Of a stretch of DNA of 64,000 nucleotides, positions 26,124-26,142 are shown in pieces. Both the position numbers and the translations under genes were made by a program. Numbering within the stretch: the first letter of the stretch is position 1; every line of letters starts with the position of its first letter. The notes under the pieces were generated by a model, which saw nothing but the letters and a program-made list of their open reading frames with translations, searched no databases and had not been told where the DNA came from. The stretch is taken from the NCBI RefSeq assembly GCF_003334405.1, contig NZ_QOWM01000006.1; one strand, 5' to 3'. This DNA comes from Escherichia coli (lineage in GTDB: Bacteria; Pseudomonadota; Gammaproteobacteria; Enterobacterales; Enterobacteriaceae).

Positions 26124-26142
26124 CTTTATAATAATCATTCTC
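26124..26142 (+). promoter_or_regulatory. Fur box upstream of fhuA
   Basis: CTTTATAATAATCATTCTC matches Fur consensus GATAATGATAATCATTATC at 14/19 positions; 39 bp upstream of fhuA ATG. Confidence 0.6.

Follow-up and report, generated by a model that had tools for sequence, protein, structure and literature searches.

Fur-regulated promoters of E. coli have classically been described by a 19-bp Fur box, GATAATGATAATCATTATC, which has since been reinterpreted as overlapping 7-1-7 dimer sites or as arrays of GATAAT hexamers. The element upstream of fhuA does not differ in kind from these sites: it shares 14 of 19 positions in the classical register and 11 of 14 in the 7-1-7 arrangement, scores 20.1 bits with a Fur weight matrix, is accompanied by weaker sites offset by 6 bp and overlaps the transcription start of an iron-uptake operon, and both Fur binding and repression have been reported for it. 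It is a site of middling strength with an imperfect dyad, in which A replaces G at position 4 and G replaces A at position 17. An individual site close to it is the ryhB Fur operator, AATAATAATCATTCTCATT, which has the same base as the fhuA site at 17 of 19 positions, including the ATAATAAT and ATTCTC variants, and differs in having the consensus A at position 17, in its score (26.0 bits vs 20.1 for fhuA) and in its unrelated flanks. In placement the fhuA operator is similar to lac operator O1, where the repressor binds a little past the start (centre near +11), although this is an analogy of mechanism only, as protein and motif are unrelated. A further regulator has been described at the fhu promoter of Salmonella, where the DNase I footprint of HypT (YjiE), a HOCl-responsive regulator of the LysR type and thus distinct from Fur, covers TTACGTTATCATTCA (Jo et al. 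2019, PMC6397515). This sequence is identical in E. coli, where it abuts the Fur site, and its published position of +7 to +21 rests on a predicted start.

The window analyzed here (the whole stretch of 64,000 nt of E. coli DNA) corresponds to positions 141,304–205,303 of MG1655 (NC_000913.3). The 401 bp at NC_000913.3 167200–167600 are matched exactly, from window position 25897, and E. coli chromosomes align with the 501 bases around the Fur site at identities reaching 100%; the genes annotated in the aligned part are mrcB and fhuA. The intergenic region of 219 bp lies between the end of mrcB at 25961 and the start of fhuA at 26181. The first-pass annotation had placed a Fur box (MG1655 167,427–167,445) in an AT-rich segment 39 bp upstream of fhuA, and both particulars are borne out: 26100–26180 (81 bp) has 30% G+C vs ~51% across the window, and the distance from the last base of the 19-mer to the first base of the start codon is 39 bp. 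Taken together, the evidence assembled below makes it almost certain that this region serves the fhuACDB promoter as its Fur operator: the transcript begins at 26125, a single strong dimer site follows directly, flanked by weaker ones, and repression depends on iron (Table 1).

Table 1. Position of promoter, operator and conserved elements at the fhuACDB locus (window coordinates; positions relative to the mapped start are signed).
Feature	Position	Strand	Description or basis
-35 hexamer TTGCGA	26089–26094	+	promoter scan; 18-bp spacer to TATTAT
-10 hexamer TATTAT	26113–26118	+	promoter scan; ends 7 nt before the Cappable-seq start
fhuACDB transcription start, mapped	26125 (MG1655 167,428)	+	Cappable-seq, SMRT-Cappable-seq
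Classical 19-bp Fur box CTTTATAATAATCATTCTC	26124–26142		14/19 vs consensus; -1 to +18
Primary single-dimer Fur site TATAATAATCATTCTCGTT	26127–26145		20.1 bits; 7-1-7 core 26129–26143; centre 26136; +3 to +21
Weaker overlapping Fur site	26121–26139		6.3 bits; 6 bp upstream of primary site
Weak Fur site	26133–26151		0.4 bits; 6 bp downstream of primary site
Downstream invariant block TACGTTATCATTCAC	26146–26160		+22 to +36; mean identity 94%; exact in 50/77 loci
E. coli counterpart of the Salmonella upstream HypT footprint, AACCCTTTCTTTTCA	26028–26042		Jo et al. 2019 (PMC6397515), mapped onto the window sequence
-35 zone, ungapped	26092–26109		mean identity 0.64 (76 distinct sequences, anchored on the site)
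Fur 19-mer zone	26127–26145		mean identity 0.96 (76 distinct sequences, anchored on the site)
15 bp past the Fur site	26146–26160		mean identity 0.94 (76 distinct sequences, anchored on the site)
Remainder of leader, Shine-Dalgarno-proximal	26161–26180		mean identity 0.50 (76 distinct sequences, anchored on the site)
fhuA	26181–28424	+	ORFs, RefSeq annotation
fhuA-fhuC-fhuD-fhuB operon, Fur-regulated	26181–32141	+	ORFs, RefSeq annotation; full-length transcripts from 167427; fur deletion raises expression of all four

The start of the operon has been mapped in two published datasets, both from a single laboratory and neither made under iron starvation. Cappable-seq (Ettwiller et al. 2016, PMC4782308) reports a start at 167,428 on the + strand with a score of 31.4, a minor start at 167,477 and none near 167,442, and SMRT-Cappable-seq (Yan et al. 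2018, PMC6131387) places the start at 167,427, with transcripts covering b0150 alone and b0150–b0153. From the mapped start, the fhuA leader measures 56 nt. Conservation of the promoter was assessed in a set of orthologues holding one genome per species (78 enterobacterial fhuA loci under ~25 genus labels, of which 77 were usable, with FhuA identities ranging from 99% to 58%). With indels allowed, TTGC[T/C/G]A at an 18-bp spacer was the best -35 element in 74 of the 77 loci; TATTAT was exact in 65/77 and stood 8 bp from the Fur site in 61/77. The primary Fur site overlaps the start region, and the operator, at about -1 to +21, follows the -10 hexamer, whereas a computational assignment has it covering the -10.

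That assignment was adopted by Jo et al. 2019 (PMC6397515), who describe a Salmonella fhu promoter nearly identical to that of E. coli with an implied +1 at window 26139 and a -10 hexamer TATAAT inside the box. Read in this way, the conserved block would be kept mainly as a promoter element, with TATAAT (26127–26132) as the -10, a start near 26139 and Fur covering the -10. The box does contain a perfect TATAAT, (T/C)ATAAT inside the box is kept in 72 of the 77 loci, and the A at position 4 is conserved though most verified Fur sites have G there. However, the start at 26139 (167442), and with it the -10, -35 and footprint coordinates of the HypT paper, was taken from a computational prediction (Huerta and Collado-Vides 2003) and finds no counterpart in Cappable-seq, the mapped starts being 167428/167427, 14 bp further upstream, with none at 167442. 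The promoter scan found no usable -35 element at 16–18 bp upstream of TATAAT, whereas TTGCNA-18-TATTAT, further upstream, is conserved and keeps a constant distance to the operator. A promoter built on TATAAT is accordingly judged very unlikely, and even there Fur would still act as the repressor, the geometry alone being different. Since (T/C)ATAAT is conserved in so many loci, a minor or condition-specific role of TATAAT is possible. With the operator placed downstream of the -10, the mapped start and the conserved TTGCNA-18-TATTAT also shift the published coordinates of the HypT sites, so that the footprint sequence, at 26145–26159 in the window, lies at +21 to +35.

At the level of consensus counting, the 14/19 agreement of CTTTATAATAATCATTCTC with GATAATGATAATCATTATC reported in the first-pass annotation was reproduced (13/19 on the reverse strand), and further matches of 11–13/19 were found at 3- and 6-bp offsets, starting at 26118, 26121, 26127 and 26130. 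A consensus search of the 64-kb window allowing ≤3 mismatches returned no 19-mer. Markov-1 simulations gave an expectation of 1.0 match of 14/19, where the window has four (14090, 26124, 34011 and 35245); for the 219-bp intergenic region, the probability of one or more such matches was ~0.025. The 14/19 count alone is weak and not significant.

A more discriminating comparison was made with a Fur weight matrix (symmetrized, 19 columns, log-odds) derived from 16 footprinted or gel-shifted E. coli sites of Chen et al. 2007 (PMC2189734), with fhuA excluded and sequences taken from NC_000913.3; the 16 training sites aligned on AATGATAATnATTATCATT without adjustment. The weight-matrix scan, which had been proposed as a check on the 19-mer, gave its top score in the 64 kb to the primary site of Table 1, overlapping the 19-mer. 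Its score lies inside the range of the training sites (19.7–29.0 bits), so that the fhuA site scores like verified Fur sites. Under an independent-base model ~0.0055 sites of this strength are expected per 64 kb, and of 500 Markov-1 windows six attained this score, as did 8 of 20,000 shuffled versions of the AT-rich 81 bp. The element of the first-pass annotation was therefore retained and its register refined, the single-dimer site lying 3 bp to the right of 26124–26142; the centre of this site is position 13 of the classical 19-mer, so that the two descriptions refer to the same element. In the 7-1-7 arrangement, TAATAAT-C-ATTCTCG agrees with TGATAATnATTATCA at 11/14 positions, giving an imperfect dyad with extra sites at 6-bp offsets. 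The three overlapping sites form a 31-bp cluster, 26121–26151, spanning -4 to +27, in agreement with the fhuA entry of Chen et al. (PMC2189734) in centre, number of sites and length (19.5 bits, 3 sites, 31 bp, coordinate 167439 = window 26136, position -45). Consensus counting thus cannot tell the fhuA site from the three other, non-functional-looking 14/19 matches, whereas the weight matrix together with phylogenetic footprinting can.

In the orthologue set, the best matrix site in the 200 bp before the ATG was centred 43–49 bp upstream in all 77 loci, scoring at least 12.8 bits in 77/77 and at least 15 bits in 76/77, vs 2 of 1,530 control 200-bp windows from the same loci reaching 15 bits or more; the site is hence conserved at orthologous fhuA promoters. 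The columns of the site that often vary are position 1, position 10 (the uninformative N at the centre of the motif) and position 14 (A or C, both of which occur in verified sites). Two non-consensus bases, the A at position 4 (26130) and the G at position 17 (26143), where 87% of verified sites have G and A, respectively, are both kept in 74 of 76 distinct orthologue sequences. The near-invariance of A4 and G17 goes beyond what Fur binding alone explains and hints that affinity is tuned or that a further constraint acts on this DNA. The information of the matrix columns and their entropy among the orthologues gave a Spearman correlation of -0.41 (p = 0.08), which is a trend only. Within the species, the 51 bp at 26112–26162 were present in 5,415 of 5,426 complete E. 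coli genomes and were ≥99% identical in 4,184 genomes, which at this length means identical.

The 501-bp query was covered at <80% in 575 of 5,422 E. coli genomes. In WL297, the sole low-coverage example looked at, mrcB and fhuA are separated by genes for a fimbrial usher and a fimbrial subunit, at the place of window positions ~25962–26100; from about 26102 on, homology is clear again, the -35 element is TTGCTA, as in other genera, and promoter and operator are still attached to fhuA despite the fimbrial genes. In WL297-like strains, the sequence matching the upstream HypT footprint would be displaced.

Published experiments address the site directly. In the work of Chen et al. 2007 (PMC2189734), 150 nM Fur gel-shifted a fhuA oligonucleotide, with the strongest site at MG1655 167439, which contradicts the lack of Fur binding in vitro that the first-pass annotation had named as grounds for giving up the site. 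Its suggestion of consulting Fur ChIP data is likewise answered by Gao et al. 2023 (PMC10164565), who report ChIP-exo peaks from iron-replete cells assigned to fhuACDB at 167218–167254, 167456–167466 and 167641–167672 in MG1655 and at 167456–167468 in W3110; the fhuACDB peaks are marked as present also in the earlier dataset of Seo et al. (PMC10164565). On deletion of fur, fhuA changed by a log2 value of +1.09 in MG1655 and +5.0 in W3110, the change was positive in 8 of 9 strains, and all four genes of fhuACDB were up in fur deletion strains (PMC10164565). Repression in MG1655 is only ~2-fold in this dataset. The other ground named for rejection, a fhuA promoter fusion that does not respond to iron, is contradicted by a fhuA promoter-lacZ fusion that was repressed by Fur, more strongly without oxygen (Beauchene et al. 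2015, PMC4676285). The "PfhuA" expression system of PMC3621691 was set aside as evidence for E. coli, its promoter being that of Vibrio cholerae fhuA. The idea that an AT-rich promoter region merely resembles the AT-rich Fur consensus by chance, with Fur inactive here, could draw on the four 14/19 matches in the window where about one is expected and on the 30% G+C of the region, but is hardly credible in view of the few shuffles of the same AT-rich segment that reached the score (8/20,000), the phylogenetic footprint in 77/77 loci and the published gel shift, ChIP-exo, fur-deletion and lacZ data.

Fur control of fhuACDB, as originally proposed for this DNA, is thus upheld by the top site of a matrix that excludes fhuA, by 77/77 orthologue loci and by published gel shift, ChIP-exo and derepression, and 26124–26142 is part of the documented Fur operator of the fhuACDB ferrichrome-uptake promoter. 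The sequence match, the conservation, the transcription start and repression by Fur are each documented here or in the cited work, as is the binding of Fur both in vitro and in cells. The operator is deeply conserved, ordinary and already known: the remark that it was expected rather than novel was apt, as the site had been predicted, gel-shifted and seen by ChIP-exo, and Fur control of fhuA is textbook knowledge. Its importance as a discovery is small, and the by-products of the analysis are modest.

In mechanistic terms, the strong dimer site, centred at +12 immediately past the start and flanked by weaker sites at 6-bp offsets, is bound by Fe2+-Fur when iron is sufficient, with an occupied stretch of probably ~-4 to +27; the accessible literature yielded no DNase I footprint for Fur at E. 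coli fhuA, and these limits of protection are therefore inferred. The DNA so occupied would comprise the start and the downstream duplex that RNA polymerase needs for open complex formation and promoter clearance, and Fur lying over both would be expected to block initiation sterically. When iron is scarce, Fur loses its metal and comes off the DNA, and the ferrichrome uptake genes fhuACDB are transcribed.

Constrained DNA reaches 15 bp past the Fur site. This downstream block carries a Fur-like half-site, GTTATCATT, and hexamers that keep the phase of the box agree with ATTATC at 5/6, 3/6, 5/6 and 4/6 positions; it also coincides largely with the HypT footprint sequence. The block may be an extension of the Fur operator, a HypT site, or both. 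The central ChIP-exo peak (window 26153–26163) was considered as a sign of Fur on the downstream block and was discarded as such: its midpoint is displaced by 22 bp downstream from the site centre, and at 19 other loci the ChIP-exo midpoints fall between -14 and +28 bp of the centres given by Chen et al. (fes +28, exbB +26, gpmA +16, sodA -14), so that the offset is within the resolution of the dataset. It is conceivable, if rather unlikely, that the invariant 33-bp block 26128–26160 is a composite control module in which the A4 in (T/C)ATAAT (+3 to +8), the G17 and the stretch from +22 to +36 serve a second function atop Fur repression. Such a function might be sigma70-dependent pausing close to the promoter, a second promoter that starts near 26139 and is active in iron starvation only, or an interplay of Fur and HypT, competitive or cooperative, at their adjacent sites. 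That the transcribed box is instead kept as an RNA element of the leader (a small-RNA pairing site or a structure) and not as a DNA operator would fit with 26128–26160 lying wholly within the 5′UTR from the mapped start, but is extremely improbable, as the leader has a folding energy of -2.8 kcal/mol (z = +1.72) and is less structured than 195 of 200 shuffled versions, an Rfam search found no family at threshold (the sub-threshold match being to potC at 26003–26058, E = 0.55), the block matches a DNA-binding motif in near-palindromic form and the Shine-Dalgarno-proximal part of the leader is only ~50% conserved.

Several other features of the window were noted. The second-best matrix site, ATTGAGAATCATTCTGAAT at 48278–48296 (18.0 bits), lies in the divergent region between map and rpsB, 75–93 bp ahead of the map start codon, which lies on the minus strand at 48203, and coincides with a Fur ChIP-exo peak, 189588–189600, in MG1655 and W3110. 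In MG1655 this is the one intergenic Fur ChIP-exo peak reported for the stretch besides fhuA, so that the two top matrix sites of the window are the two loci with such peaks. The other 14/19 consensus matches had matrix scores of ≤13.6 bits (14090–14111), <5.7 bits (34011–34029) and 9.0 bits (35245–35263, in the clcA-erpA spacer). Deletion of fur shifts erpA expression one way in MG1655 and the other way in W3110, and a W3110 ChIP-exo peak at 35709–35721 lies ~460 bp from the 35245 match.

Closer to the operon, an inverted repeat with perfect 10-bp arms around a 5-nt loop (ACCGGATGGC GAGTT GCCATCCGGT, 25978–26002) lies 17 nt 3′ of the mrcB stop codon; the sequence 3′ of the repeat is A-rich and not T-rich, so that it was unlisted by the terminator scan. 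Within fhuA, W3110 has an intragenic Fur ChIP-exo peak at 169031–169043 (window 27728–27740), and SMRT-Cappable-seq reports novel internal starts leading into fhuC at 169123 and 169214 (window 27820 and 27911); the Fur matrix found no site of >5.7 bits in this region of the peak and starts. In the same SMRT-Cappable-seq data, some transcripts end at 169763, directly past fhuA.
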